NCBI GenBank assembly: GCA_024682255.1
Contig: GCA_024682255.1_4716.1
Origin: a phage
Reading direction: 5' to 3' (one strand)
Length of the DNA: 64,000 nt
Positions 2,254 to 37,240 of this stretch are shown one piece after another. The number at the start of each line of letters is the position of its first letter. Position 1 is the first letter of the stretch. Under the pieces are notes generated by a model, which was given only the letters and a program-made list of their open reading frames with translations, was not told where the DNA came from and did not search any database. The position numbers and the translations under genes are program-made.

Positions 2254-3234
2254 TTAGAAAAGCAAGAAACCGCTATTCTTCGCTTCCGCTACAGTTTCGT
2301 CACCAACTTTCGGTGCTTGTTGACGTGCGTTACGATGTTCGATGTAACGTTTCGCTTCGTCCGCGATCTGTTTGATAATACCCCCTAAACGATCGGTACT
2401 TAAAACAAACGACGTCGCTTCACGAATTGGGCTGCTTTCAGGCACAAAACCATCACAGCTGTAAATAGCGCTAACACCCATGACTTTGGTCGCGTCTTTC
2501 GGATAAAGCGTACAGAAAGCAATCGGGCTATCGTTCTCTTTCGTCCAATCGTATCCCATGAACGTATTCAGTTCGGTGATCGTTGGTTCCAAACCGGTAA
2601 CACGTGGATGGTTTAAGAAGTTTTCCAGGTCGGCGCTGTCAAGACGGCGGTTCTCGCCAGAAAACAGAACACAAAGCTGGCTGATAACAACCTGCACGTC
2701 CAGGTTGACATCCTGCTCCGATTTCCCATTTTCGCCATTCATGTGATAGCTAACAATCACTGGACGTTTCAACCCTTCTGCAGCAGCCATCAGTCCTTTG
2801 AAGGTGCGATCGGCGTTGATGGTTTGGCGTTCATCATCGAACGAGGCGACGATACAACACACCACACGTTCACCGCGTTCCAGCAGATTAGCAACCAACG
2901 CAGGACCGGCAACAGAACCTGAACCACCGCTCAAACTAAAGACCACGATATTAAATTTACCTGGTGTATGCTTATTGAGAATACCTGGGATTTGCGAGCA
3001 GATCAGTTCAGCGTTCTCGTCACGCTTCTTACCGGAACCGTCTAACTCACGACCAGCTGCATCTTTAAAGATGTAAATATGATCGTCGCCCAGTGTGCTA
3101 TCGCGTAGGTTAGCGCGGCTGGTATCAACATACGTCATGCTGTGTAATCCTTTCGCGACTTCGCCTTCAAATGCTGAGCCGATTTCGCCACCACAACCAC
3201 CAACAGCCCAAATATGTACTTGGTTCTCTTGCAT
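2254..3234 (-). CDS. phuZ: tubulin/FtsZ-superfamily GTPase, PhuZ-like phage tubulin
   Basis: N-terminal GGCGGEIG resembles tubulin T1 loop GQCGNQIG; SLSGGSGSVAG resembles tubulin signature GGGTGSG; ~326 aa as phage PhuZ; AGGAG SD. Confidence 0.65.
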   Translation of the reverse strand: MQENQVHIWAVGGCGGEIGSAFEGEVAKGLHSMTYVDTSRANLRDSTLGDDHIYIFKDAAGRELDGSGKKRDENAELICSQIPGILNKHTPGKFNIVVFSLSGGSGSVAGPALVANLLERGERVVCCIVASFDDERQTINADRTFKGLMAAAEGLKRPVIVSYHMNGENGKSEQDVNLDVQVVISQLCVLFSGENRRLDSADLENFLNHPRVTGLEPTITELNTFMGYDWTKENDSPIAFCTLYPKDATKVMGVSAIYSCDGFVPESSPIREATSFVLSTDRLGGIIKQIADEAKRYIEHRNARQQAPKVGDETVAEAKNSGFLLF

Positions 3235-3298: not shown

Positions 3299-4141
3299 AT
3301 GGGTGCTATTGACTACAGTGTAGATCGTATCTGTCGTACAATACCGGCAGATATCCTACAGTATTGCTATATCGATCGTTACGACTGGCGTAATCGCTAT
3401 CCTCGTTCCGTAGAAGACATCATTACCGATTGGGTAATCCGTAAACGGGTTATCGGCGACATCGATATCTACGGGGGACTACAAACCGTTATCCCCCTCG
3501 ATGATGCCGGTGTCACTATCGAAGAAGTCACCATTAACTGTTATGTTTTCCACATCCCGTTGGAAGCCACACAGGGACGTTATATCACGTCTGCATTATC
3601 CATTATTTCAGGGAGCGTGAACAACTACGGAATAAACTATAACGGGCAATGGGGTGCTTTCAACCAAACCCAGTTTCAACGTCAGCTTTGTGGGTGGAAC
3701 CCCGCAAGCAACACGTTACAGCAAGGGATGAACGCGTTCGGTCCCATGAACGTTCTTAGTACAGCCAACGTTGATATCATCGCCCCTAACACCATCATGG
3801 TGAACAACGTCACGCCTGTACAATTTCCCCTGAGTCTACGTTGTTTCCTTGCCCACGATCCGGAACTTACCAACCTCAGCATGGAGGTTTGGAACGACTT
3901 TTACAAACTCTGTTTATACGCCACACAAAGCGACATCTACAACAGAACCGTTATCCGTCTTGACAGAGGTGTTACAGCACAAGGACAAGAAGTCGGTGCA
4001 TTCAAGGAATACATCGATCGCTTTGCTGATGCTGAAAACACATATCAAGAATTCCTGAACGAAACGTGGGCGGGCGTTGCTGCCTGGAACGATCCACAAA
4101 CTAAACGTCGCGCTATTCGTTTGCAAACCGGTTACTTCTGA
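3299..4141 (+). CDS. hypothetical protein
   Basis: 280-aa ORF; followed by hairpin. Confidence 0.5.
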   Translation: MGAIDYSVDRICRTIPADILQYCYIDRYDWRNRYPRSVEDIITDWVIRKRVIGDIDIYGGLQTVIPLDDAGVTIEEVTINCYVFHIPLEATQGRYITSALSIISGSVNNYGINYNGQWGAFNQTQFQRQLCGWNPASNTLQQGMNAFGPMNVLSTANVDIIAPNTIMVNNVTPVQFPLSLRCFLAHDPELTNLSMEVWNDFYKLCLYATQSDIYNRTVIRLDRGVTAQGQEVGAFKEYIDRFADAENTYQEFLNETWAGVAAWNDPQTKRRAIRLQTGYF

Positions 4142-26760: not shown

Positions 26761-28284
26761 TTACACCTCGCTAATCTGGATAACGTAAAGCTGCTGGGCC
26801 ACGTAATCGGTGGTCAGATGCATCGTTGCGATGGTCGCTGCTTCGAACACCGTGAGTTCAGGACGTTCACGCATAATCAAATCGATCTCGTCGATGAGAC
26901 GGTTAACGCCTTGAGCGTCTTCGTGATGCATCGTTTTCACGTAGAGCGTACGGAAATACTGCTGGAAATTAGCTACGTCGGTATCGGTAAGGTTAGCAAC
27001 TTCACCACGCACAATTTCCATGACCTTCTTACGGGTATCTTCATCGAGGTCTACCGTAATCAGGTCAGCAAATACACCCTGCAATGCCAACGCATATGCA
27101 CGTAAGCGGTTTGCGGCTTGCTGGCTGGCTTTCATGTTGATGTAGTTACGGTAATGCTGCATGAAGCCCGCACCGTTAGCCAGCAGTTCATCTTTACTGA
27201 TGAGTTCACGTTCTAACAGCACAGCTGCGGTCAGTGCTTCCGGCGAACCACCTTCTTGCAGATAACCCATGTAGACGTCTGCGTTAACGAAAATCGTCAT
27301 CGTTGACGCGTCTTCAGCACGTTGAATCTGAGAAGCTGACGGTGCAGAAAGAATCAGTTCACCACGCTCCATACGCAGGATACGATCGCGACCGACGCGG
27401 GCCATCCCGTTGATCGCCGCAGCGCGAGCTTGTTGCATTTTAGCACGGTAGTTTTCAAGCATCATGTCGTTGCCGTCCTGGATATCTTCCAGCAGGTTAA
27501 CGGCCCACATATAGCAGAGGAATGCAGGAGTTGCCGCAGCGCGGGAACCGTGGAATGCAACGTTATCGCTATCCGGATATGTAATCAGATAAGCGGTGTT
27601 GTTCGAAGAAGGAGCAGAACCACGGAAGAAATAGTTGTAGATGTCTTCCAATGCCTGATCGCTCATCCCTTCCGTTGCTTGCTGTACAAAACGATCCAGG
27701 TTTTCATTACCGGTATACAGCAACGTACGCAGCTTATCACCGGTGATAAACGCAAGCTTTCCGGTTGGGGTGAAATCGTTATTAATCGAAATCAAGCCGT
27801 TGAGATCGTAATCGCTAACTAATGCCTGGTACTCTTCGGAGTTATAAAACTCAGGATAGTAACTCAGACTTACTGTCGGGATCAGTTTCGGTGCCAGGAT
27901 GATCGAATCAATGCGTTTTTCCAGTTCCGGGTACAGCGCACGGCATTTCGGCAGGATGGTATTACGCGCCAACTCTTTGGCATACACCACTTTTTCCACC
28001 ACGTCTTGAACTGCGGTCTGTAAAACTTCATCGTGGATATAAACCTCGCGTTCGCTGGCAGGTGCTACAACGCCATCTTCGGTTTCATCAAGTGTTTCAG
28101 CAACAACCATACGTTCAGCACTAAGCTGCACCAACGCATCCGCATCTTCCGGCGGCTGGTTCCAATGCATGGTTTCACAAACCGCGGCTAACGGCGTGCC
28201 CGGAATGGCTGCGACGATTTGGTTACGTTTGATAAACCCTTCGACAATGGGCTCAACGGCATAAACGGTTTTATTGGTGATCAT
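26761..28284 (-). CDS. hypothetical protein
   Basis: 507-aa ORF immediately downstream of RNAP cluster. Confidence 0.5.
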   Translation of the reverse strand: MITNKTVYAVEPIVEGFIKRNQIVAAIPGTPLAAVCETMHWNQPPEDADALVQLSAERMVVAETLDETEDGVVAPASEREVYIHDEVLQTAVQDVVEKVVYAKELARNTILPKCRALYPELEKRIDSIILAPKLIPTVSLSYYPEFYNSEEYQALVSDYDLNGLISINNDFTPTGKLAFITGDKLRTLLYTGNENLDRFVQQATEGMSDQALEDIYNYFFRGSAPSSNNTAYLITYPDSDNVAFHGSRAAATPAFLCYMWAVNLLEDIQDGNDMMLENYRAKMQQARAAAINGMARVGRDRILRMERGELILSAPSASQIQRAEDASTMTIFVNADVYMGYLQEGGSPEALTAAVLLERELISKDELLANGAGFMQHYRNYINMKASQQAANRLRAYALALQGVFADLITVDLDEDTRKKVMEIVRGEVANLTDTDVANFQQYFRTLYVKTMHHEDAQGVNRLIDEIDLIMRERPELTVFEAATIATMHLTTDYVAQQLYVIQISEV

Positions 28285-28517
28285 TACTGCGCTCCCTCCA
28301 ACGCATTACTACCTACGGGTTCTTTGGTTTCCAGACGGCTGTTTAAGCGCGCAGCAACCGCATCTTCCAATCCCAACGGCATAACCTTTTTGTTCACGTC
28401 AGGATCGGCGGCATCATTACCAACGGTTTGACGTACGACCTCAGCAACCAACGTTACCGCGTTCGTCAGCGCAACAAAGCTCGCTGCCCGAGCCGTGTTA
28501 AGTTGTTCTTGGTTCAT
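28284..28517 (-). CDS. hypothetical small protein
   Basis: 77-aa ORF with AAAAGGAAAAG SD region. Confidence 0.4.
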   Translation of the reverse strand: MNQEQLNTARAASFVALTNAVTLVAEVVRQTVGNDAADPDVNKKVMPLGLEDAVAARLNSRLETKEPVGSNALEGAQ

Positions 28518-28548
28518 TCACTTTTCCTTTTAATGTCAGAGCATCGCA

Positions 28549-28568
28549 TTCTTGACGTACGTCAAGAA
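28549..28568. promoter_or_regulatory. 20-bp perfect palindrome ttcttgacgtacgtcaagaa
   Basis: read directly; between RNAP beta-like gene terminator and next gene. Confidence 0.35.
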
Positions 28569-28592
28569 GGTACTGCGTTCAGCGAAATAAAC

Positions 28593-28618
28593 GAGCAGGG
28601 GCATGACGCCCCCTGCTC
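28593..28618 (-). terminator. hairpin gagcagggg/cccctgctc abutting stop codon of beta-like gene, followed by GTTTATTTCGC
   Basis: inverted repeat. Confidence 0.5.
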
Positions 28619-29728
28619 TTATTTAGCGTCGTTAAAGTAAATATCAACAGCTCGTTCCGTTGCGTAGAGGAGACCAAGATTCACAGTCCCAACCACTTCC
28701 GGTGAACCGATGATACGGTTAGCGATACTGGTGCCACTGAAGATAGCATCAAGGGTGTGCCCGTCTTCGGTTTTGTTCACACCATGACCCACGGAAGAGA
28801 CAACGGATTTCGCTTGAGCTGCGAAGGTACCTTTATCACCCATCCCCGCACCAAGGTCGTAACGCATGAAAATACGGATGGCGATCTGGTTCTCGCCTAA
28901 CGGATTACCGTCTATTCTCACGTTACTGTTATTGATACGCCCCGTTGTTGCTTCGTTGAGTTTCAGTTCCTTAACGCGTTTAGCTCGTGCTTTATCCGCT
29001 TCACCGACGAGCGCTGCCATGGTTTCACTCATATCCTCAATCTGAGCGCGGTACAGTACATCGATCTGTACAACTTCACCATGAACGTCAGCACGTGGGT
29101 TATACTGACTCATACGACGTAATGCTTCAACGGCTTCCTGACTCTCATCACTCAGATCGGTTGCAATCGGTTCTTCCAGTGTTGCAAGGATCGTTCGAGG
29201 TTCAACGTGATCGCCGATTTTCACGAGACCGCGAATGTTGAGATGGGCGTCAACGATAAGCGTACGGCTCTTAATCGATGGTGTTACGAGACGATCGGCA
29301 AGATTGTCGAAGATATACGAACTGTCCTCGTGGGTCTCTGGAATATCCAGAATACCGACAAGAGACAGCACGCCTGCGCGCCAAACAACCTGACCTGGGT
29401 TCCACCAGTCGCGTTTAAAATAAAGACGATGGAAAACCACCACATCCTGATCCTTAACGCGATCCCCGACTTTATAATCGGTAATGAGATCGTGAGGATA
29501 ATACTTACCTGGTCCTTTCCCGATTATCGTACCGAGCTGGAAAACCTCTTCCCCTAACTCTGGATCGTCGTACTGTATCGTCAGCGCAGTTTTGGTGACC
29601 TTCTTGACAACACCATCGCCTTGGGCGGCAGCTGCGAAGAGTTTACCAACACGATGCGCGATAACAGTCTCACCGCCGGTGCGCCACGGTTGTACATCGT
29701 AACCTTCAGCAGCAATCATGCGGTTGTG
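28619..29728 (-). CDS. RNA polymerase beta-like subunit, exon 2 (track ORF 28619-29749 begins at an in-intron TTG that is not a real start)
   Basis: HNRMIAAEG matches beta ANRALMGAN; GDKGTFAAQAKSVVS matches beta GDKMAGRHGNKGVIS; frame open upstream into intron. Confidence 0.75.
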   Translation of the reverse strand, partial: HNRMIAAEGYDVQPWRTGGETVIAHRVGKLFAAAAQGDGVVKKVTKTALTIQYDDPELGEEVFQLGTIIGKGPGKYYPHDLITDYKVGDRVKDQDVVVFHRLYFKRDWWNPGQVVWRAGVLSLVGILDIPETHEDSSYIFDNLADRLVTPSIKSRTLIVDAHLNIRGLVKIGDHVEPRTILATLEEPIATDLSDESQEAVEALRRMSQYNPRADVHGEVVQIDVLYRAQIEDMSETMAALVGEADKARAKRVKELKLNEATTGRINNSNVRIDGNPLGENQIAIRIFMRYDLGAGMGDKGTFAAQAKSVVSSVGHGVNKTEDGHTLDAIFSGTSIANRIIGSPEVVGTVNLGLLYATERAVDIYFNDAK

Positions 29729-30264
29729 CTGTATACCTATAAATACCAATCTCTTGGGCGAATTTAGTTCTTATTCAACATAATCGTACTATTACCAGAA
29801 TAAGACTGAGATTAGATTGTTCAGATAAGGTCGTTGCTTGAAACGATCGTTTCAGCGCTCATCTTATCCCGGAGGCGACGATAGGCACATCACCTCCCGC
29901 TTGCGCTCTCACGCAAGAGCAGACTATATCACATCTCGTTTCAAACGGTGCTTCTTCAGCACCTCAACGAGAGTTCACTTCTTCCCAGCGCATCCAGCGC
30001 CATTCTCTTATCCAAGGAGAATGCCTCACTCGAGGGGTACAGGGGGATGAATCCCTTAGTCGTTGAACCTTTACCTTAGAACGCTTCACAGCGATCCTTA
30101 GGTACTTGGCTGCGGATTGTCCTTAAGCTATTATCTGTTTTTATACCATACCGTCTTTCTTTTCAGAATCCGTTTTGGTCGATAACAGCGATGGATGTCT
30201 TCGCAATTCAGTGAATCTCATCTACATGTCGCCACATAGACGGACCCTGCTATTAAAAGCGTTA
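29729..30264 (-). ncRNA. group I self-splicing intron (no ORF) in RNAP beta-like gene
   Basis: minus-strand P (AAUUGCGAAGA, 30198-30208), Q (AAUCCGCAGC, 30109-30118), R (GGUUCAACGACUAAGGGAUU, 30050-30069), S (GAUAUAGUC, 29922-29930) in canonical order; exon ends in U, intron ends in G. Confidence 0.8.
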
Positions 30265-33200
30265 ATCATCTCTATCAGCAGCAGGTACTGCAAGTGCTGA
30301 TGTACTCATTATTGACGAGCTACCATCCGTTTTCTCGTCGTAGGGTTTCGTTTCACCGTATACAGACACAATGTTTGCGTTAGGTGCAAGGTAAGCAGAG
30401 ATACCTACGTCCCCACTATCCTTCGTACCTTCGGATACAACACCAATGTCCGACTTGTCGTATTCACGATCGCGTGCGCGTCGAAGCGATGTCTTTGAAC
30501 GACCCCCAATACCGGTCATCGTCGCTTCTTCACCCTGCTTGATATCCAGCATCGGGTTGGTTTCATCGATCACGATGGAAGCACTGTCGTCGAGAATTTG
30601 GTTCCAGACACTTACCGGACTGATTGAGATTTTCTGGCGATTTCCTTGACTGCTGTTCTCATTCTGACGAATAGCGCCAACCAGATCCTTATACACCAAT
30701 TCAGCGAACTTATCGTACGTTTTAAAACGTTGGTAGTTCACATCGTTCGTGTTAGGAGCCCAATCATCCAGAAGCAATTCAACAGCACGCAGTAACAACA
30801 TGGCGAAATCGGTAGGTTCTCCCATGTTCTGCAGCAACATACGGCTTACCGGATCAACGAAAAGACGCTCCATGAGTTCAAGTTCGCGTAAATGACGAAC
30901 CTTAAGTCCGGCACCATCGACAACGTTAAAATAGATATCTCGATTGTCAAAAGCGCCGCGAGCGTAACCAATGTAGTTACGGTATTCGTTAAACCCACCC
31001 AGCAACAACGTCGTCATGCGGTCGTCTTTACTGAAGATCAAACTTTCGTCGTCAAAGCTCACCGCGAATTCATCGGGTGCTAGACCCATACGAGAACCGC
31101 GAGGTACCGTACGATAGTTTGCTTTAAGATGTTCTAATAACGGGGTGAGTCCGCCCAGATAACTTAGAACAACACCGACCGGAATACGTACACCCATGAA
31201 TTCAAGATCGGCAGCTTCGATCGGCATCTTGGCCGCATTGATGCCGAAGAAATCAGGGAACGTCCCTACAGGTGTTGGTGTTTGTCCTGACTGACAGATA
31301 TAGAGCTGATTGCGTTTATCGATTGCTAAGAATTCACCCAGCGTGTTACGCGCAAACGTCAGGAGCCCTTCGGCTAACTGTTCGTTGAACCGATCTTCCC
31401 CAATGAACTCCGGTAGCGTTTTTATATCGAGACGTATATCCCAATCAGCAAATTGGATTTGGGTATAATTGCGCGCAAGCACAGCGAAGTAGTACGGAAC
31501 TTTGACAGCTGGATCAAAGACGTTACCACGTTTTAACGTGGTTAAGGGTGAGGACTTATCGTAATACATCGCTGTAAGTTGACGTGTTAGCCAACGACCC
31601 GCATTATTAACGACGCGCTCTGAACGTTTAACAAACACCTTACCGTAGGCGGTACTCAATGCAACTTCGGATGACGATACCTTTCTAATAGGTTTATCAA
31701 CACGTTGTTTACGCATCCGGTATTTGATGCCGTTAACGACATAAATGCCGTCCTTACGAACCTTCGGCAACATCACCGGGAACGTGGTCGGGACACCGCC
31801 TACAGGAGCCAGTTTAATCGTGATGACTTGATAATCCCCCATCACGTCAACGACATCTTCAACTTTATATCCCGTGACAGGGTAACCTGCCTGCTGTACC
31901 GCAACAACGGCAGCTGCGATGTCCTTTTGCATTACGTGTTCGACGTAATGTTTATCCCACACCGCGAGCGTCGATTTACATAAGCTCTTGTCGACGATAA
32001 CATCCGCTTCCGGCATAACCTTTGCAGGCGCTAATTTCGCGGCTTTTGGTTTAACTTCAACATACTCGGCAAGTGTTAATCCAGAACCGTCGGGTGCTTC
32101 GATTTCGTGAATGGCATCGGCGTTACGCATCGCTGCTTTATATTGGACACCGCTTAACTGACCCGCATCGGCCAGATCGCTCGCGCGTACCAACACCGCA
32201 TCCGATAACGACTGAATATATTCACCATGTGTTTTTGGTAACGTTGTCGCATCAAAGACATCAACCTTTTCTTCTTCGGTATCGTCGGTAACGACTTCGA
32301 AGAGATCGTCGGTAATGTCCTGATCTTCATCGGGTTGGAAATCCGGCTGTACTTCTACCCCGGGTACTTCACGGACATCTTCGAACGAGCGTTCTACAAT
32401 GGCGTTCCACGCATCAGCGTCATCGTCTTCATCCGAACCACCGACCAACTCCGCTTCTAACTCATCGGGATCAAGAACGGTAGCCAGATCCTCACCGTTA
32501 GGAAGCACGACGTCGCGATCATCGTACTCCGCATCCGGGCTGTCTGCAAGAATATCCCGCTCTTGACGAAGAACCTGTTCCTCTTCTTGTTTCTGTTCTT
32601 CTTCATTCGCGCTCTGCGACCACAGACGTGTTACCGCCATCATCCAACGACGCTGGAAGGTTTCGAGTGTCGTTTTATCGAGTTCTTCCCCTTCCTTTAC
32701 AAGTCCGGTACGCCATTCTTCCAGCAAGCCGAGATTCAGCGTAAAGAAGTACACACCGTCTGTAAATACAACGTTAAGCTTATCCAGCGTGGCCCTGTCT
32801 AACGAAGCCATCGTGCTGTTCTCACGATCGGTTCCCAGCCAGCGGAAGAAGTCAAAGAACGACAGCTCCTCCGGTGTGGCGAAATTCATGAGGTTGTTAC
32901 GGGTCGGTGCCTGTTGCGTGGTACGCATCAACGAAATCTTCGGCAATGTTGACGGTATACGGAACAACAAAAAGTGTTGACGATCGCTTTGCTGTGCGAT
33001 TTCGTTGGCTTTCGACCAAATTGTTTTACGTACGTTGAACCATTCATCATACCAACGGGTGAGCGTTGGACGATAAATGTACATGTGGTTAAGATGCGCG
33101 TAGTTAGCAACGATCTGAGCGTTGATGTTTTTCTCTACCGTGCTTAGATCGGTAACCAAACGAAAACGACGATGTGATGCACGATAATCCAATTTCGCTC

Positions 33201-33471
33201 GTGGGAGTTGGAATCGTTGATCGCGTCGAGGTGCGCCCTGTTTGGTTGCGAGATCATCAGCAAACGAAATCCATAGTTGAGCACTTTCTTTACTCAGCAT
33301 GTATTCGTTTTCTGGAGGACCTATCAACGATGGATCCGTTGCGGTGTAATGATAGACAGCATAACGCGGCAGCTGCAATAGCTGCACTAAACGTAATCTC
33401 GGTGATAGTAGCTCTTGGTAGCGTCTGACACCGAACTGTCGGTAGTAATCAAGGTATTTAAGTTTTGCCAT
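30265..33471 (-). CDS. RNA polymerase beta-like subunit, exon 1 (includes ~450-500 aa non-RNAP N-terminal extension)
   Basis: MTGIGGRSK...SGDVGISAYLAPNAN matches beta ALGPGGLTRERAG...PEGPNIGLINSLSVYAQTN; C-terminal VPAADRDD matches beta IPFLEHDD. Confidence 0.8.
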
Positions 33472-33474
33472 GGG

Positions 33475-33654
33475 TTAGGCTCCACGAGGTCCCGTTAAGT
33501 TGCGTAATAGGAACGCAACTGTATCGTAACCAATATCAATGTTGAATTTATTTTTACCGCTTACCCAAAAAGCACGCTTCTTGTGCGAGTTGGTAATTTC
33601 GTCAATGGCTTCCATGGAATAAAGAACGTTAACCGAGACCGTATCACCGTCGAA
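33475..33654 (-). CDS. RNA polymerase beta-prime-like N-terminal subunit, exon 2 (59 codons, not in ORF track)
   Basis: translation FDGDTVSVNVLYSMEAIDE...NIDIGYDTVAFLLRNLT matches beta-prime [21 protein letters not shown]...VLGLYYMT; preceded by G (omega-G), stop 4 nt before beta-like start. Confidence 0.7.
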   Translation of the reverse strand, partial: FDGDTVSVNVLYSMEAIDEITNSHKKRAFWVSGKNKFNIDIGYDTVAFLLRNLTGPRGA

Positions 33655-35731
33655 CCTTTTCTTCGCCTCAGGTCGCTACGCTGAGACCGCCTGCGTGGAT
33701 ACGTACATCACAGGCTGCTTGCACTTTCATGCAAGAGGAGACTATATCAAACCGTCAGCTTCACCTTCTCGATCGTATCGAGAATGCGGTGCTGAAGTAT
33801 TCTTCAGCAGCACCTGCTACGGTAACCTACACTTCGAAGACGCTTGTCCTCTACAGGGTGGTAAATCCCTTAGTCGTTGAACCTGCGTTGTTTCACATTC
33901 TTGTTTGCAAGAATGCCGTATTGCTACGCAACAACCAGGCTGCTGATTGCCCATTATCACGCACCTTAGCACCGCTTACGCGGCTTTTCTTTCAGCCTAA
34001 GCCTCCGTGGGAGGTAATGTCTGATTAAATCAGACATCGCCAGGAGGTAGTGCATCTCAACTGTTGTTTCCGCCTTTCGGCACCTCATGGGTTGTTGAGC
34101 TTTAGGGGTTCCCAGCAATTCGTAGGTTTTTCAAGCACTCCCTTTCGGGAATACCGGACCATTACCCTTTAGCTAATTTATTTAAGTATCTGAAATCCCA
34201 CTTATCTTTGCGTCTATTTTCGCACTTAATAGCTTGGTTCTTTATTCTCCAAGCCACCTTTGTTTTAGGTAATTGGCTGTAATTGGCCGCTGACGCAGTA
34301 CCTAAAACAACGGTTACGGTACCATCGGGTTTAGTAATCTCTACAGCGCGATAATGCTTACGTAACACATTACGCCAATATTCACGGCGTTCTGGCTCAG
34401 CATACTCAAGCATATAACCGTTGGTATCGACCAGACCGTAACACTCGTTTAAACGAGAGGTAGCGGCCGGTCTACTAATACCGATTGCTTTAGCCGCGTC
34501 AACCACGGTTTTATACGGGGTTTCATTACCGTCTCTATCTACAACCACAATAAAATCTGGACGCGAATCGAGCAGCTGCTGTCTTCGTTCAAGGGCTTGT
34601 TGATGAAGCACCTTGTTAACATGTTCGAACCCGTAACCTTCTGGACCGCGCCACCCTGGATTGTTATTCGCTCGATAAAGTACCGTCGCTGATTTCACTC
34701 CAGTCTGACGTGACGCCTCGTTTGCACTATGAACAACCGTGGTAGAGCCGTCAGGGTGATATATCCGTATCTGGTTCATTATACCGGAACCAACAAAATT
34801 ACCATCAGCTGATTTAATATCCGGCCATGGTTGAGGATTATCCTTGAATTTAACCACCCAACGACTGTTAAACAATTTGACTTTCCGGGCATGTTTACCC
34901 ATTGTCGTATCCGTAACACCAGCTACAACAGAGGCTTGCGTGATACTCAGGTACTCAGTAACGGTATCGTCCCATGTATCCCAGAGCAGAACCGGTTTAT
35001 TGTCGTCGCGTAAACCGTGTTCGATAGCATGCAGGACATTACGACTTCTGGTTGCCCATTCAAGGTTGTCAAGAGAATAGTTCCACTTATCGGCATCAAG
35101 ATGGTTAACGTCCATCCTATCGACATCGGCTGGATACTCTCTCCACGCCAGCATTAGACAACGGTGTAATACCTTGCTACCGGCCTTCTGGCGACAATCA
35201 TGTTTCAAGCAGACAGTAACGTAACGGTTCGTTACGAAACACGGGCGACAAATGCTCCCGTCTTTTCTGTCCCTGATATCACCTACTTCGTTTATTACAT
35301 ATCTCGTCAGTCCTGGAATAACGCGATAGCCAGGATACTTAGCGATTTCATAAGCGGGCTCGAACCGATAGGATAAATTATCAACATCCCAGTTAGATTC
35401 GTCACCATCAACAAACATCGCTTTGACGTATTTCTGTGTTTCAATATCAACCAGGATGTTTTTGTGTGCGATACAAATCAATGCTGGGATATTGAATTCG
35501 CGACCGGCTAAGATAACCGTGTCGCCATCTCTCGGTACCTCGACGTGGGTATCGCGATACCGCAAGTTTCCATAGCCGTCTATTTCAATCCAGCTTAGAA
35601 ACGGAATAGATATAAATTCTTTTTCAGATACTCGCCATTTAAACATATAAACCCCTGTATAACCTTACTGTCACACTAAGAGGTTTATCTGTAAATTCTT
35701 ACAGAATGGCGTAATTTTACTAAAAGGGCCG
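33655..35731 (-). mobile_element. group I intron carrying an HNH homing endonuclease gene, inserted in beta-prime-like gene
   Basis: minus-strand P (AAUUGCUGGGAA, 34109-34120), Q (AAUCAGCAGCC, 33939-33948), R (33864-33883), S (33740-33748); HNH ORF upstream of core; 5-prime boundary by homology. Confidence 0.7.
34162..35646 (-). CDS. HNH homing endonuclease (HNH_3-type with NUMOD/IENR-like HTH modules), intron-encoded
   Basis: motif NHLDADKWNYSLDNLEWATRSRNVLHA; C-terminal AAKAIGISRPAATSRLN HTH-like repeats. Confidence 0.85.
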   Translation of the reverse strand: MFKWRVSEKEFISIPFLSWIEIDGYGNLRYRDTHVEVPRDGDTVILAGREFNIPALICIAHKNILVDIETQKYVKAMFVDGDESNWDVDNLSYRFEPAYEIAKYPGYRVIPGLTRYVINEVGDIRDRKDGSICRPCFVTNRYVTVCLKHDCRQKAGSKVLHRCLMLAWREYPADVDRMDVNHLDADKWNYSLDNLEWATRSRNVLHAIEHGLRDDNKPVLLWDTWDDTVTEYLSITQASVVAGVTDTTMGKHARKVKLFNSRWVVKFKDNPQPWPDIKSADGNFVGSGIMNQIRIYHPDGSTTVVHSANEASRQTGVKSATVLYRANNNPGWRGPEGYGFEHVNKVLHQQALERRQQLLDSRPDFIVVVDRDGNETPYKTVVDAAKAIGISRPAATSRLNECYGLVDTNGYMLEYAEPERREYWRNVLRKHYRAVEITKPDGTVTVVLGTASAANYSQLPKTKVAWRIKNQAIKCENRRKDKWDFRYLNKLAKG

Positions 35732-37240
35732 ATCACCGCCTAAACCGGCGAGGTATGGCGCAGGAACAATAGTCGTTTCTACGAACGAAGCATTAGGTAA
35801 CCAGTCGGGGTATTCCCATGCGATAAATCGTTCATCCGTTATTGGTTCCCAGTTACTATCCAGTTCGGTTTTCGGTTTTGCAGCGACGGTTGTACGCGCG
35901 TAACAGGTTAACGGGATAACGGATTGCATACCCGATACCGGATAACGTGTTACCATCGCAGCCAGGTTATTCCAGTACTTATATCCGGCGATATAGATAA
36001 GCTCGGTGTAAGTAATGGGGTGAACATCCGCACCAGGTTTATTCAACATCTCTGGGGGTAATTCACTCATACCACGGAATAACCGAAACGAATCGTTGTT
36101 CACATAGACGAGGCAAAGATAACGTCCATTGACCATGATAGGTTCATTACGCACACCAGGATCGCTTAAGGTGTTCAGTAAACGTTCGATACCGTCCCAG
36201 GTTGTAAAGTCATCGATGGTGTCTGGATCAAGCGTGACACGTTCACGTTCCATCGTTTCGGTATCGATAAGTTCAACTTCTGTAACATCACGGACAAATA
36301 TTTCCTGCAAAATCCCCGTACGTAACGCATGTTGCGTTACAGGGAGAGCAGCTTTACTCATCTGGTATAACCCTAACTGAACCGCGGTACAGGAAGGCTG
36401 GTTAGGCGACCCTAGTACCTCCGTTGTGGGGTTAATTGCCGAAATAACGTTACGGGTTGAGTTCCAAACGCGACGTGAACCGAACTTGCCTTGGAAGATC
36501 CCTTTCTTACCTTGGAACATATCCAACAACAAAGCGTAGATATCGTTAAATGTTCTCTGTAAGCTCCAGCGCTGGCCGTCGTAAACGGGATCAGAATAAT
36601 CTTTTAATCCATCAGGGACGGTGTTAGAAATTGCAAGGAAACGACGATACAACTCTGTGATTTCTTGCTCGCTTTCATACCCGCCTTCTTTTACTTCTAT
36701 TTCACGTAAGCCCGCAGGTAAAACCAGTAAGTGACGAGTCATCGCTTTGAACATGTTCTCTTCGACAACTTTAATTCGTAGCTCTCGTTGAGCTGAACCT
36801 GTTGAAACGAACTTGATATCCGCGACGTGTTGTGCAAAGAACCCATATCCTGTTTGTCCTGTTAACGCATCAGACGCAACGAAGTCGCGTTGTTCAGGAT
36901 CCCACCGAGCGTACGCCTTCCCCGACATGATATCGCCATAGAGGTGTTTTAGTCGAATGAGGCGATCGTAAATGACGGGATGCAGGATTTCAACCTTACA
37001 TTCAATCACCGCAAATCGACGGTCTCGATCTTCGCTACCCGCACTACCAAAGATGGTGTAAGAATAGAAACCATCATCGTGGAAATTACCGGTGCTTGGG
37101 TCACGGATGCTCATGCTCGTGATCTTGGGGAGAAAACGTAACTGCTGTTTATCGAGGTGTAAAATACTAATGTTAAACGGCTCTCTGACTTTAGCCATGG
37201 AGACACTCCTCTTTACCACCACCGGCTGCGGCGGTATCAT
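35732..37240 (-). CDS. RNA polymerase beta-prime-like N-terminal subunit, exon 1 (likely true start ATG at 37198; track frame continues to stop at 35720 inside intron)
   Basis: DGFYSYTIFGS ~ beta-prime DGLFCARIFGP; LLVLPAGLREIEVKEGG ~ [30 protein letters not shown] ~ NRAPTLHRLG; exon ends LAGLGGD before FDGD of exon 2. Confidence 0.75.

Follow-up and report, generated by a model that had tools for sequence, protein, structure and literature searches.

The closest described relative of the element analyzed here is found in Pseudomonas phage PhiPA3, in which the gp211/gp210/gp209 locus has a group I intron with a homing endonuclease of the HNH type (PMC11620839; Birkholz et al., Science 2024). 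The endonuclease, gp210, nicks the intron-minus site as well as phiKZ gp178 (Birkholz et al., PMC11620839), and the intron endonuclease of PhiPA3 has been shown to mediate competition between phages (PMC11620839). Group I introns in RNA polymerase (RNAP) genes of chimalliviruses have been predicted since the phiKZ genome paper of 2002, as cited in PMC10914365. Here, we describe an element of this kind in a 64,000-nucleotide (nt) stretch of phage DNA (NCBI GenBank assembly GCA_024682255.1, contig GCA_024682255.1_4716.1), henceforth termed the window. On its minus strand, a gene for a beta-like subunit of the virion RNA polymerase (vRNAP) of a Goslar-like Escherichia coli chimallivirus is, we are confident, interrupted by a 506-nt group I intron of the phage IA type that lacks an open reading frame (ORF) and is inserted in phase 0 at a DD-PKR sequence. 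We base this view on four features of the sequence: the core is intact and covaries, U and G stand at the splice sites, removal of the intron restores the reading frame exactly, and no endonuclease gene is present. For PhiPA3, the insertion site has been published before; what the window carries is a relative of the gp210 intron that lacks an ORF and occupies the same position in the active site.

Like the window intron, the PhiPA3 intron lies in a vRNAP beta-like gene of the phiKZ gp178 family, directly after the codons for DD, with a P1 helix in which GAU pairs with (A/G)GUC. The window intron differs in having no endonuclease gene, in measuring 506 nt instead of about 1355 nt, in residing in an E. 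coli Goslar-like phage instead of a Pseudomonas phage, and in its larger peripheral domains (P5a, four hairpins after P7, and P9.1-P9.3). A blastn search with the window intron returned no match to the PhiPA3 intron, and nucleotide similarity is therefore limited to core motifs.

ORF-less group I introns occur in T-even, Twort-like, and SPO1-like phages. A further comparison is offered by the intron of T4 nrdB, which contains the defunct endonuclease I-TevIII and is mobilized in trans by mobE (PMC2790892). Like the window intron, it is an IA-type phage ribozyme at a conserved site of an essential gene of nucleic-acid metabolism, and in both cases a working endonuclease of the intron's own would have been lost, so that movement needs help in trans; the gene and the phage group are different. 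No free-standing helper endonuclease was identified beside the window intron.

Position and ends of the intron

The window comes from a relative of Escherichia phage vB_EcoM_Goslar, a nucleus-forming jumbo phage (Goslarvirus); in a megablast search, positions 28000-36000 matched Goslar with 94% identity and 89% query coverage. In this region, the Goslar annotation lists gp205 ('RNA polymerase beta subunit'), gp206 (hypothetical, similar to phiKZ ORF179), Intron_gpI, and gp207 ('RNA polymerase beta subunit'), the last being an uninterrupted gene of 4347 nt, i.e., Goslar is intron-minus at the DD site. The minus strand of the window keeps this layout, except that the gp207 homolog is broken into two ORFs:

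33471..30262, minus strand: ORF of 1069 amino acids (aa), 5' part of the gp207 homolog (ORF list)
29749..28619, minus strand: ORF of 376 aa with a TTG start at 29749, 3' part of the gp207 homolog (ORF list)
30265..33471, minus strand: exon 1 of the vRNAP beta-like gene, 1069 codons, ending ...AADRDD (ORF list, PHROG 3148, Goslar colinearity)
29759..30264, minus strand: group I intron, 506 nt, ORF-less, starting UAACG and ending AUUCG (Rfam, Goslar comparison, structure model)
28619..29758, minus strand: exon 2, 379 codons plus stop, starting CCC AAG AGA TTG (PKRL...) (PHROG 3148; Goslar reads through)

A covariance-model scan with Rfam RF00028 matched positions 30266..29900 on the minus strand over the full model length (1-253) at 56.3 bits (gathering score 50; E=1.3e-11). 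This match is far beyond chance, and the observation of an intron is real; the match is shorter than the intron because the Rfam model ends at P9 (29900). The outer limits follow from comparison with Goslar by blastn, in which window positions 38000-30279 and 29748-28000 are colinear with the Goslar genome and enclose 530 nt in the window vs 24 nt in Goslar, a net insert of 506 nt. The uninterrupted Goslar protein reads ...AVPAVDRDD-GKRLVFVGIQHNRMIAAEGY, straight through the site as DD-GKRLVFVGIQHNR. In the window, ...AVPAADRDD is followed by TAA, and the downstream frame reads PKRLVFIGIQHNRM...; removal of the intron joins ...AADRDD to PKRLVFIGIQHNR... and would give the peptide ...AVPAADRDDPKR... 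across the spliced junction.

Splicing at 30265|29758 yields a protein of 1448 aa that aligns from residue 1 to 1448 with Goslar gp207 at 98.8% identity and with 0 gaps. The PHROG 3148 profile ('RNA polymerase beta subunit') is likewise continuous, with positions 2-1050 matched by exon 1 (E=2.8e-290), positions 1051-1420 by exon 2 (E=2.7e-120), and the step from 1050 to 1051 falling exactly at 30265|29758. Three in-frame registers of equal length can be drawn at the junction, and only that with U30265 and G29759 has both U at position -1 and G at the intron end. The intron thereby separates the second Asp codon of DD-PKR from the Pro codon (phase 0), and its first codon is a TAA that continues the frame of exon 1. 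Sense-strand ORFs within it reach 41 aa at most, and no homing endonuclease is encoded. A 70-aa ORF with a TTG start runs antisense to the ribozyme core (29838-30050, plus strand); it is without support and most likely spurious. A scan for sigma-70 promoters found nothing meaningful inside the intron, a result that is uninformative for a phage using its own polymerases.

In these respects much of the original prediction, a reading of the DNA made from the letters and an ORF list, was borne out: it had described the element as ORF-less, had recognized that the upstream ORF ends ...VPAADRDD with its TAA at 30264-30262 and that exon 1 ends at U30265, the 5' splice site, and had denied the 376-aa ORF the status of an independent gene, in agreement with the partition of the PHROG profile over both exons. 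The continuity that it proposed to check at the junction of the spliced protein is confirmed by the gap-free alignment to gp207 and by the family profile described below. For annotation, the locus amounts to one 1448-aa vRNAP beta-like gene joined at 30265|29758, instead of separate ORFs of 1069 aa and 376 aa.

The host gene is a homolog of Goslar gp207 and phiKZ gp178, and from homology to the latter (PMC11620839) we infer that its product is packaged in the virion and takes part in early-gene transcription. Directly after its stop codon lies a strong terminator-like hairpin (28618-28593, minus strand; 9 bp, of which 7 are G-C, followed by a T-run), which matches the terminator annotated after Goslar gp207.

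Fold of the intron RNA

In the predicted RNA, all four group I core elements are present, and the helices are arranged as follows (all on the minus strand):

30243..30268: P1, with exon GAU and intron U1 paired to GGUC (30246-30243) and an extension GCU (30260-30258)/AGC (30251-30249)
30221..30240: P2, 8 bp with a GCGA (GNRA) tetraloop, 100% paired in the alignment
30215-30211: P3, 5' strand (Rfam alignment)
30208-30198: P4 with core element P, AAUUGCGAAGA (Rfam alignment)
30189-30127: P5 and extended P5a (Rfam alignment)
30118-30109: P4, 3' strand, with core element Q, AAUCCGCAGC (Rfam alignment)
30109-30068: P6/P6a/P6b with a GUGA loop (Rfam alignment)
30069-30050: core element R, GGUUCAACGACUAAGGGAUU, with the P7 5' strand at 30061-30057
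30055-29988: four extra hairpins between P7 and P3' (P7.1/P7.2 type)
29978-29974: P3, 3' strand
29972-29934: P8
29930-29922: core element S, GAUAUAGUC, with the P7 3' strand
29917-29900: P9 (minimum free energy (MFE) structure)
29897-29871: P9.1 (MFE structure)
29868-29824: P9.2 with an inner palindromic hairpin (MFE structure)
29805-29769: hairpin UCUUAUUC/GAAUAAGA, followed by the tail ACUAAAUUCG up to the terminal G 29759; the peripheral 3' domain as a whole spans 29759..29917

To assess covariation, we aligned the window intron with three further copies, two from IMG/VR contigs (L010 and L011, introduced below) and one from a Logan assembly (L013), and counted pairs in a hand-built model comprising P2, P3, P4, P5, P5a, P6/6a/6b, the P7 pseudoknot, the four P7-P3' hairpins, P8/8a, P9, and P9.1. 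Across the four copies, the model holds 98 pairs with 92.3% of cells paired, and 23 pairs are changed on both sides; shuffled controls gave 8.3+-2.1 two-sided pairs, with 0/500 reaching 23, and slid controls gave 1-5. Compensatory pairs occur in P3, P4, P5, and P6b, in P8 and P8a (three each), and in P9.1 (two), while P7, which together with P3 forms the pseudoknot typical of group I introns, is invariant. P2 has a GUGA loop in L011 and a GAGA loop in L013, with compensatory changes in the stem. The MFE structure of the whole intron (-164.1 kcal/mol, z=-4.55) recovers most helices of the model along with P9.2 and the terminal hairpin. The original prediction of a group I intron with elements P, Q, R, and S in this order on the minus strand thus agrees with both the RF00028 scan and the 23 compensatory pairs. 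From the extra hairpins after P7, the intron can be assigned by its anatomy to subgroup IA, which is usual in phages, at this level of the classification only.

The predicted P1 places U30265 opposite G20 of the conserved GGUC, forming the U.G wobble at the 5' splice site, and the same hairpin is exactly what an unconstrained local MFE calculation returns (-3.3 kcal/mol). GGUC or AGUC stands directly 5' of P2 in every DD-site intron examined (L010, L011, L013, HPP-Temi, PhiPA3, and EL), and the window, HPP-Temi, EL, PhiPA3, L011, and L013 show, or are predicted to have, a P1 of GAU with (G or A)GUC and the U.G wobble. Two other pairings were set aside. In the P1 of the Rfam alignment, the splice-site U falls within the intron (CGCUU[U]UA) and five pairs are mismatched; this P1 was rejected in favor of the junction defined by Goslar. 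A longer P1, in which exon AGAUGAU pairs with GU(C)CGUCU around a bulged C and extends into P2, was dropped, as L013 is unable to form it and the outer pairs of P2 covary.

The interrupted motif

Neither exon product had a match in Pfam, and the spliced protein, searched as a single sequence against the Protein Data Bank (PDB), had none there either. Since single-sequence Pfam and PDB searches are blind to this beta-like protein, a family profile was needed to reach RpoB; we built it from six sequences (the window protein, phiKZ gp178, the spliced proteins of 2050HW, C-ZP2022, and EL, and P0002) and searched it against the PDB. It matched RpoB of Thermus thermophilus (1iw7_C, E=1.6e-20), the E. 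coli beta subunit (E=2.8e-8), and the non-virion RNA polymerase (nvRNAP) of AR9 (7s00_C, E=1.1e-7). The profile segment 'StsalllpaaehDDpkRlnfisiQ' covers the catalytic-centre motif of RpoB, with 'ehDDpkR' over 'EHDDANR' of the Thermus protein (1iw7_C), and the segment 'vgDKlvlgnQlKsvv' aligns with VGDKLANRHGNKGVV, with 'gDK...nQlK' over 'GDK...HGNK'.

By this alignment, the intron is positioned between HDD and xxR of the bacterial HDDANR motif, which in the window reads DD|PKR. An interruption inside a conserved beta motif had been proposed before, and this part holds (DD|PKR over HDD|ANR); the residues then assigned to the motif, HNR, do not, as xKR corresponds to PKR at 29758-29750. The RpoB match stops near Thermus residue 883/1119, in accordance with the earlier suggestion that the protein ends well short of the beta C-terminus, which must therefore be encoded elsewhere. 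Such a short C-terminus fits the division of jumbo-phage vRNAP beta and beta' over several polypeptides (PMC7598289).

Introns and probable introns at the same site in other phages

As a search for homologous proteins gave 2 matches and a search for related loci in IMG/VR gave three Goslar-like contigs, we surveyed the insertion site by tblastn of the junction region against a collection of 50,697 phage records, 298 of which contain a homolog (phiKZ gp178 family). In PhiPA3, Serratia phage 2050HW, and Vibrio phage C-ZP2022, the gene shows a split precisely at DD|xKR, and the intervening DNA of each contains an endonuclease ORF. The same split without an ORF occurs in the Pseudomonas phages EL (gp186|gp187, 415 nt; 199958-200373) and HPP-Temi (348 nt), and a DD|xKR split is also present in L013. 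In Aeromonas phage PS2, the match falls into two pieces with P and R elements and no large ORF in the gap; exon 1 ends ...RDD, and the junction is approximate. In all related introns at this site, the final G is followed immediately by the xKR codons (...G|CCN AAR or equivalent).

Four DD-site loci score above threshold with RF00028, HPP-Temi reaching 70.5 bits. EL, PS2, and C-ZP2022 are below the gathering score; despite this, their inserts carry the P and R core elements AATTGC and GTTCAACGACTA. EL, HPP-Temi, and PS2 are publicly annotated as two separate coding sequences (CDSs), as is the C-ZP2022 gene, and the inserts of EL, PS2, and C-ZP2022 are probably introns missed in public records. 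The inserts of EL, HPP-Temi, and PS2 resemble the window intron in splitting the beta-like gene at this site, in lacking an endonuclease ORF, and in their group I P and R elements; they differ in that the proteins are only 31-41% identical and the introns are shorter and without the long 3' domain. In the literature, we found no paper that describes the inserts of EL, HPP-Temi, and PS2 as introns, and none that mentions an intron at the DD site in Goslar-like phages.

Outside this site, the best nucleotide matches to P4'-P6-P7 of the window intron (77-79% over 85 nt) lie in Vibrio phages vB_pir03 (MT811961.1, 82841-82927) and C-ZP2022 (OM319461.1, 189942-190028). Both are in or beside genes annotated 'RNA polymerase beta prime subunit', which suggests further unannotated group I introns.

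Alleles among Goslar relatives

A 20-mer from the intron core retrieved three IMG/VR contigs: Goslar itself, L010 (IMGVR_UViG_3300045988_173921), and L011 (IMGVR_UViG_3300011560_000001, 237.5 kb). Goslar (NC_048170) has the empty allele. L010 is 96% identical to the window, has both of the introns found there (the second is described at the end), and carries an ORF-less DD-site intron of 461 nt. L011 has a DD-site intron of 1583 nt with a 403-aa HNH ORF. These Goslar-like alleles share one site in genomes with about 94-96% identity to the window, and, judged from their sequences, the empty, endonuclease-carrying, and ORF-less forms together represent the states of a classical homing cycle in Goslar-like phages.

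The endonuclease ORF of L011 is flanked by a GCUU/GAGC extension of P1, and because it stands between the two strands of this extension, it is located in loop L1. Over nearly its full length, its product is homologous to PhiPA3 gp210 (36% identity, E=3e-56), and it falls together with the DD-site endonucleases of PhiPA3 (gp210), 2050HW, C-ZP2022, and L013 (E=1e-39 to 1e-61). The L011 intron has a second, degenerate P2/P3-5' module (2976-3060 vs 4040-4110) that directly follows the 5' splice site and precedes the HNH ORF; this module is 77% identical to nt 1-56 of the window intron, lacks the GGUC guide, and may be a scar of the insertion of the endonuclease gene.

Between the introns of L011 and the window, P6-P9.1 are 94% identical and P7-P8 100% identical; P2-P5, which in L011 overlap the 3' end of the ORF, are about 72% identical. 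Because of this lower identity and a different 3' tail, the ORF-less form is no simple deletion derivative of the L011 allele. Unlike L010 and L011, the window intron has in its 3' tail a 25-nt palindromic hairpin in the P9.2 loop and another terminal hairpin (29868-29747 region), and the first 12 bases of exon 2 read CCCAAGAGATTG vs CCAAAGCGTCTC in L010 and L011. This suggests a separate recombination or further exchange at the 3' junction of the window.

Close to the intron, exon sequence departs from Goslar far more than the background does. Mismatches between the window and Goslar, by distance from the junction, are:

far upstream (background): 86/1900, 4.5%
-100..-31: 19/70, 27%
-30..-1: 11/30, 37%
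+1..+30: 13/30, 43%
+31..+100: 7/70, 10%
+101..+300: 8/200, 4%

Within the divergent tract, 28 changed codons are synonymous and 7 non-synonymous. The 5' flanks of the three intron-bearing alleles are nearly identical (0-2 differences per 30 nt), and that of L013 resembles the flank of Goslar, not that of the window. Together with the intron-minus state of Goslar, the tract is compatible with, and no proof of, a footprint of co-conversion during homing from a more divergent donor. Alternatively, the empty site of Goslar, GACCGTGACGAT|GGAAAACGT, which is the gp207 target DNA at the empty junction, may have diverged under selection to escape cleavage. A blastn search against phage genomes returned short core matches only (beta' introns of Vibrio phages and the other intron of Goslar) and no donor lineage for the co-converted flanks.

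Proposed splicing and competing explanations

From established group I chemistry, we propose that in the pre-mRNA exon GAU and intron U1 would pair with GGUC to form P1, that a free guanosine bound at P7 would attack after U30265, and that the freed 3'-OH of exon 1 would then attack after the terminal G 29759, giving ...GAU GAU|CCC AAG... and restoring the 1448-aa frame. If the RNA stayed unspliced, ribosomes would stop at the in-frame TAA that opens the intron. Concerning its history, the comparative data point to arrival of the intron by endonuclease-driven homing into a Goslar-like genome from a more divergent donor, perhaps together with flanking exon sequence (about 100 nt on the upstream and about 30 nt on the downstream side), followed by loss of the HNH gene that is still present in loop L1 of the sibling L011. 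The present intron would be immobile by itself and could be mobilized in trans by a co-infecting, endonuclease-carrying sibling; it would also split the sequence that the endonuclease is expected to recognize.

Several points weigh against this account. P1 is short, with 3 exon bp only, and thermodynamically weak (-3.3 kcal/mol locally), and P10 has at most 2 bp. P2-P5 match L011 at only about 72%, the 3' tail is different, and the change may have been a gain of the ORF instead of a loss. That this phage splices the intron, and does so by guanosine-dependent self-splicing, we infer from sequence. A full-length transcriptome of phiKZ contained no spliced reads for the introns predicted there under its conditions (PMC10914365), and for this reason efficient splicing of chimallivirus introns is not to be taken for granted.

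The phiKZ result also favors an explanation in which the ribozyme is a dead relic and the 1069-aa and ca. 376-aa products are made separately, assembling non-covalently like other split jumbo-phage RNAPs. The natural occurrence of beta and beta' in several polypeptides (PMC7598289) and the two-CDS annotations of EL, HPP-Temi, and PS2 are in line with such an arrangement. We nevertheless consider it improbable: all core helices are intact and upheld by compensatory changes across copies, the P7-P8 core is identical to that of L011, and the break would fall between adjacent residues of an invariant catalytic-centre motif. Moreover, exon 2 offers as a start only a TTG that lies 9 nt into conserved coding sequence, with no ATG until 'MIAAEG', and the closest relative, Goslar, makes a single polypeptide. 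Still less likely is ectopic transposition, by reverse splicing or illegitimate recombination, from the intron of the neighboring beta'-like gene (35731..33655). The two introns do share short, near-identical core stretches, e.g., GGTTCAACGACTAAGGGATT, yet core identity is 0.90 to the same-site intron of L011 and 0.67 to the neighbor. Similarity between the L011 endonuclease and the HNH protein of the neighbor is weak (E=2.5e-10) and covers 153 N-terminal residues of the L011 protein, and the divergence tract in the flanking exons fits homing.

Where the intron ends is a separate question. In the original prediction, it ran over 536 nt, from 30264 to 29729, with DD joined directly to HNR and a product of about 1438 aa. 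The codons CAC AAC CGC (HNR) that follow G29729 bear a superficial likeness to the xNR of HDDANR, and the join is in frame. A terminal G was correctly foreseen, but the Goslar comparison places it at G29759, 30 bases off. The longer intron is hardly credible, as it would delete PKRLVFIGIQ, a segment conserved in Goslar (GKRLVFVGIQ), phiKZ gp178 (PKRINFISIQ), and all other homologs; these ten residues have RpoB counterparts in the profile alignment, and related introns at the site end before the xKR codons instead. The TTG at 29749, previously placed inside the intron, is the exon-2 Leu codon (PKR-L-VF). A 506-nt intron ending at G29759 and capable of splicing accommodates these observations best.

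Why an ORF-less intron would be kept is a matter on which we offer a tentative idea: it may persist as an immunity allele, in which the split DD|PKR target shields the essential vRNAP beta gene from a gp210-like nicking endonuclease of co-circulating Goslar-like phages. As a whole, we rate this reading as doubtful. If true, the four near-identical genomes, with their empty, armed, and disarmed alleles, would capture intron-mediated interference competition in an E. coli chimallivirus as it happens. As a model chimallivirus of E. coli, Goslar is tractable; its close relatives supply intron-minus, endonuclease-carrying, and ORF-less alleles, and these natural alleles are a ready system for studying ORF-less intron immunity and mobilization in trans. 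The annotations of EL, HPP-Temi, and PS2, in which the gene is likewise split, call for the same correction as that of the window. These findings open neither a new class of element nor a new mechanism.

A second intron in the beta'-like gene

RF00028 has a second group I match in the window (34180..33718, minus strand), which belongs to the neighboring intron:

35731..33655, minus strand: second group I intron (2077 nt), flanked by the exon ends 35732 and 33654
35646..34162, minus strand: 494-aa HNH ORF held by this intron

Its host is the homolog of phiKZ gp180 and Goslar gp205, cut inside the beta' catalytic triad. Exon 1 ends ...GLGGD (GAU, U35732), and exon 2 reads FDGDTVS... up to a stop (33477-33475) that precedes the ATG of the beta-like gene by 3 nt; the spliced beta'-like product would have about 562 aa. 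The intron-free gp212 of PhiPA3 aligns contiguously across the junction (residues 1-489|490-544). It follows that the final 59 codons, among them those for FDGD, are missing from the 506-aa ORF of the window and from Goslar gp205 and phiKZ gp180 as annotated. With this intron, both catalytic motifs of the vRNAP (beta' D|FDGD and beta DD|PKR) would be interrupted by ribozymes that fold inside the ribosome-free phage nucleus, and splicing could act as a checkpoint on production of the virion polymerase. The HNH protein of the neighboring intron (34162-35646, minus strand) is 84.5% identical to Goslar gp206, vs 98.8% for the beta-like protein, and its gene thus appears to be evolving or exchanged much faster than the host genes.

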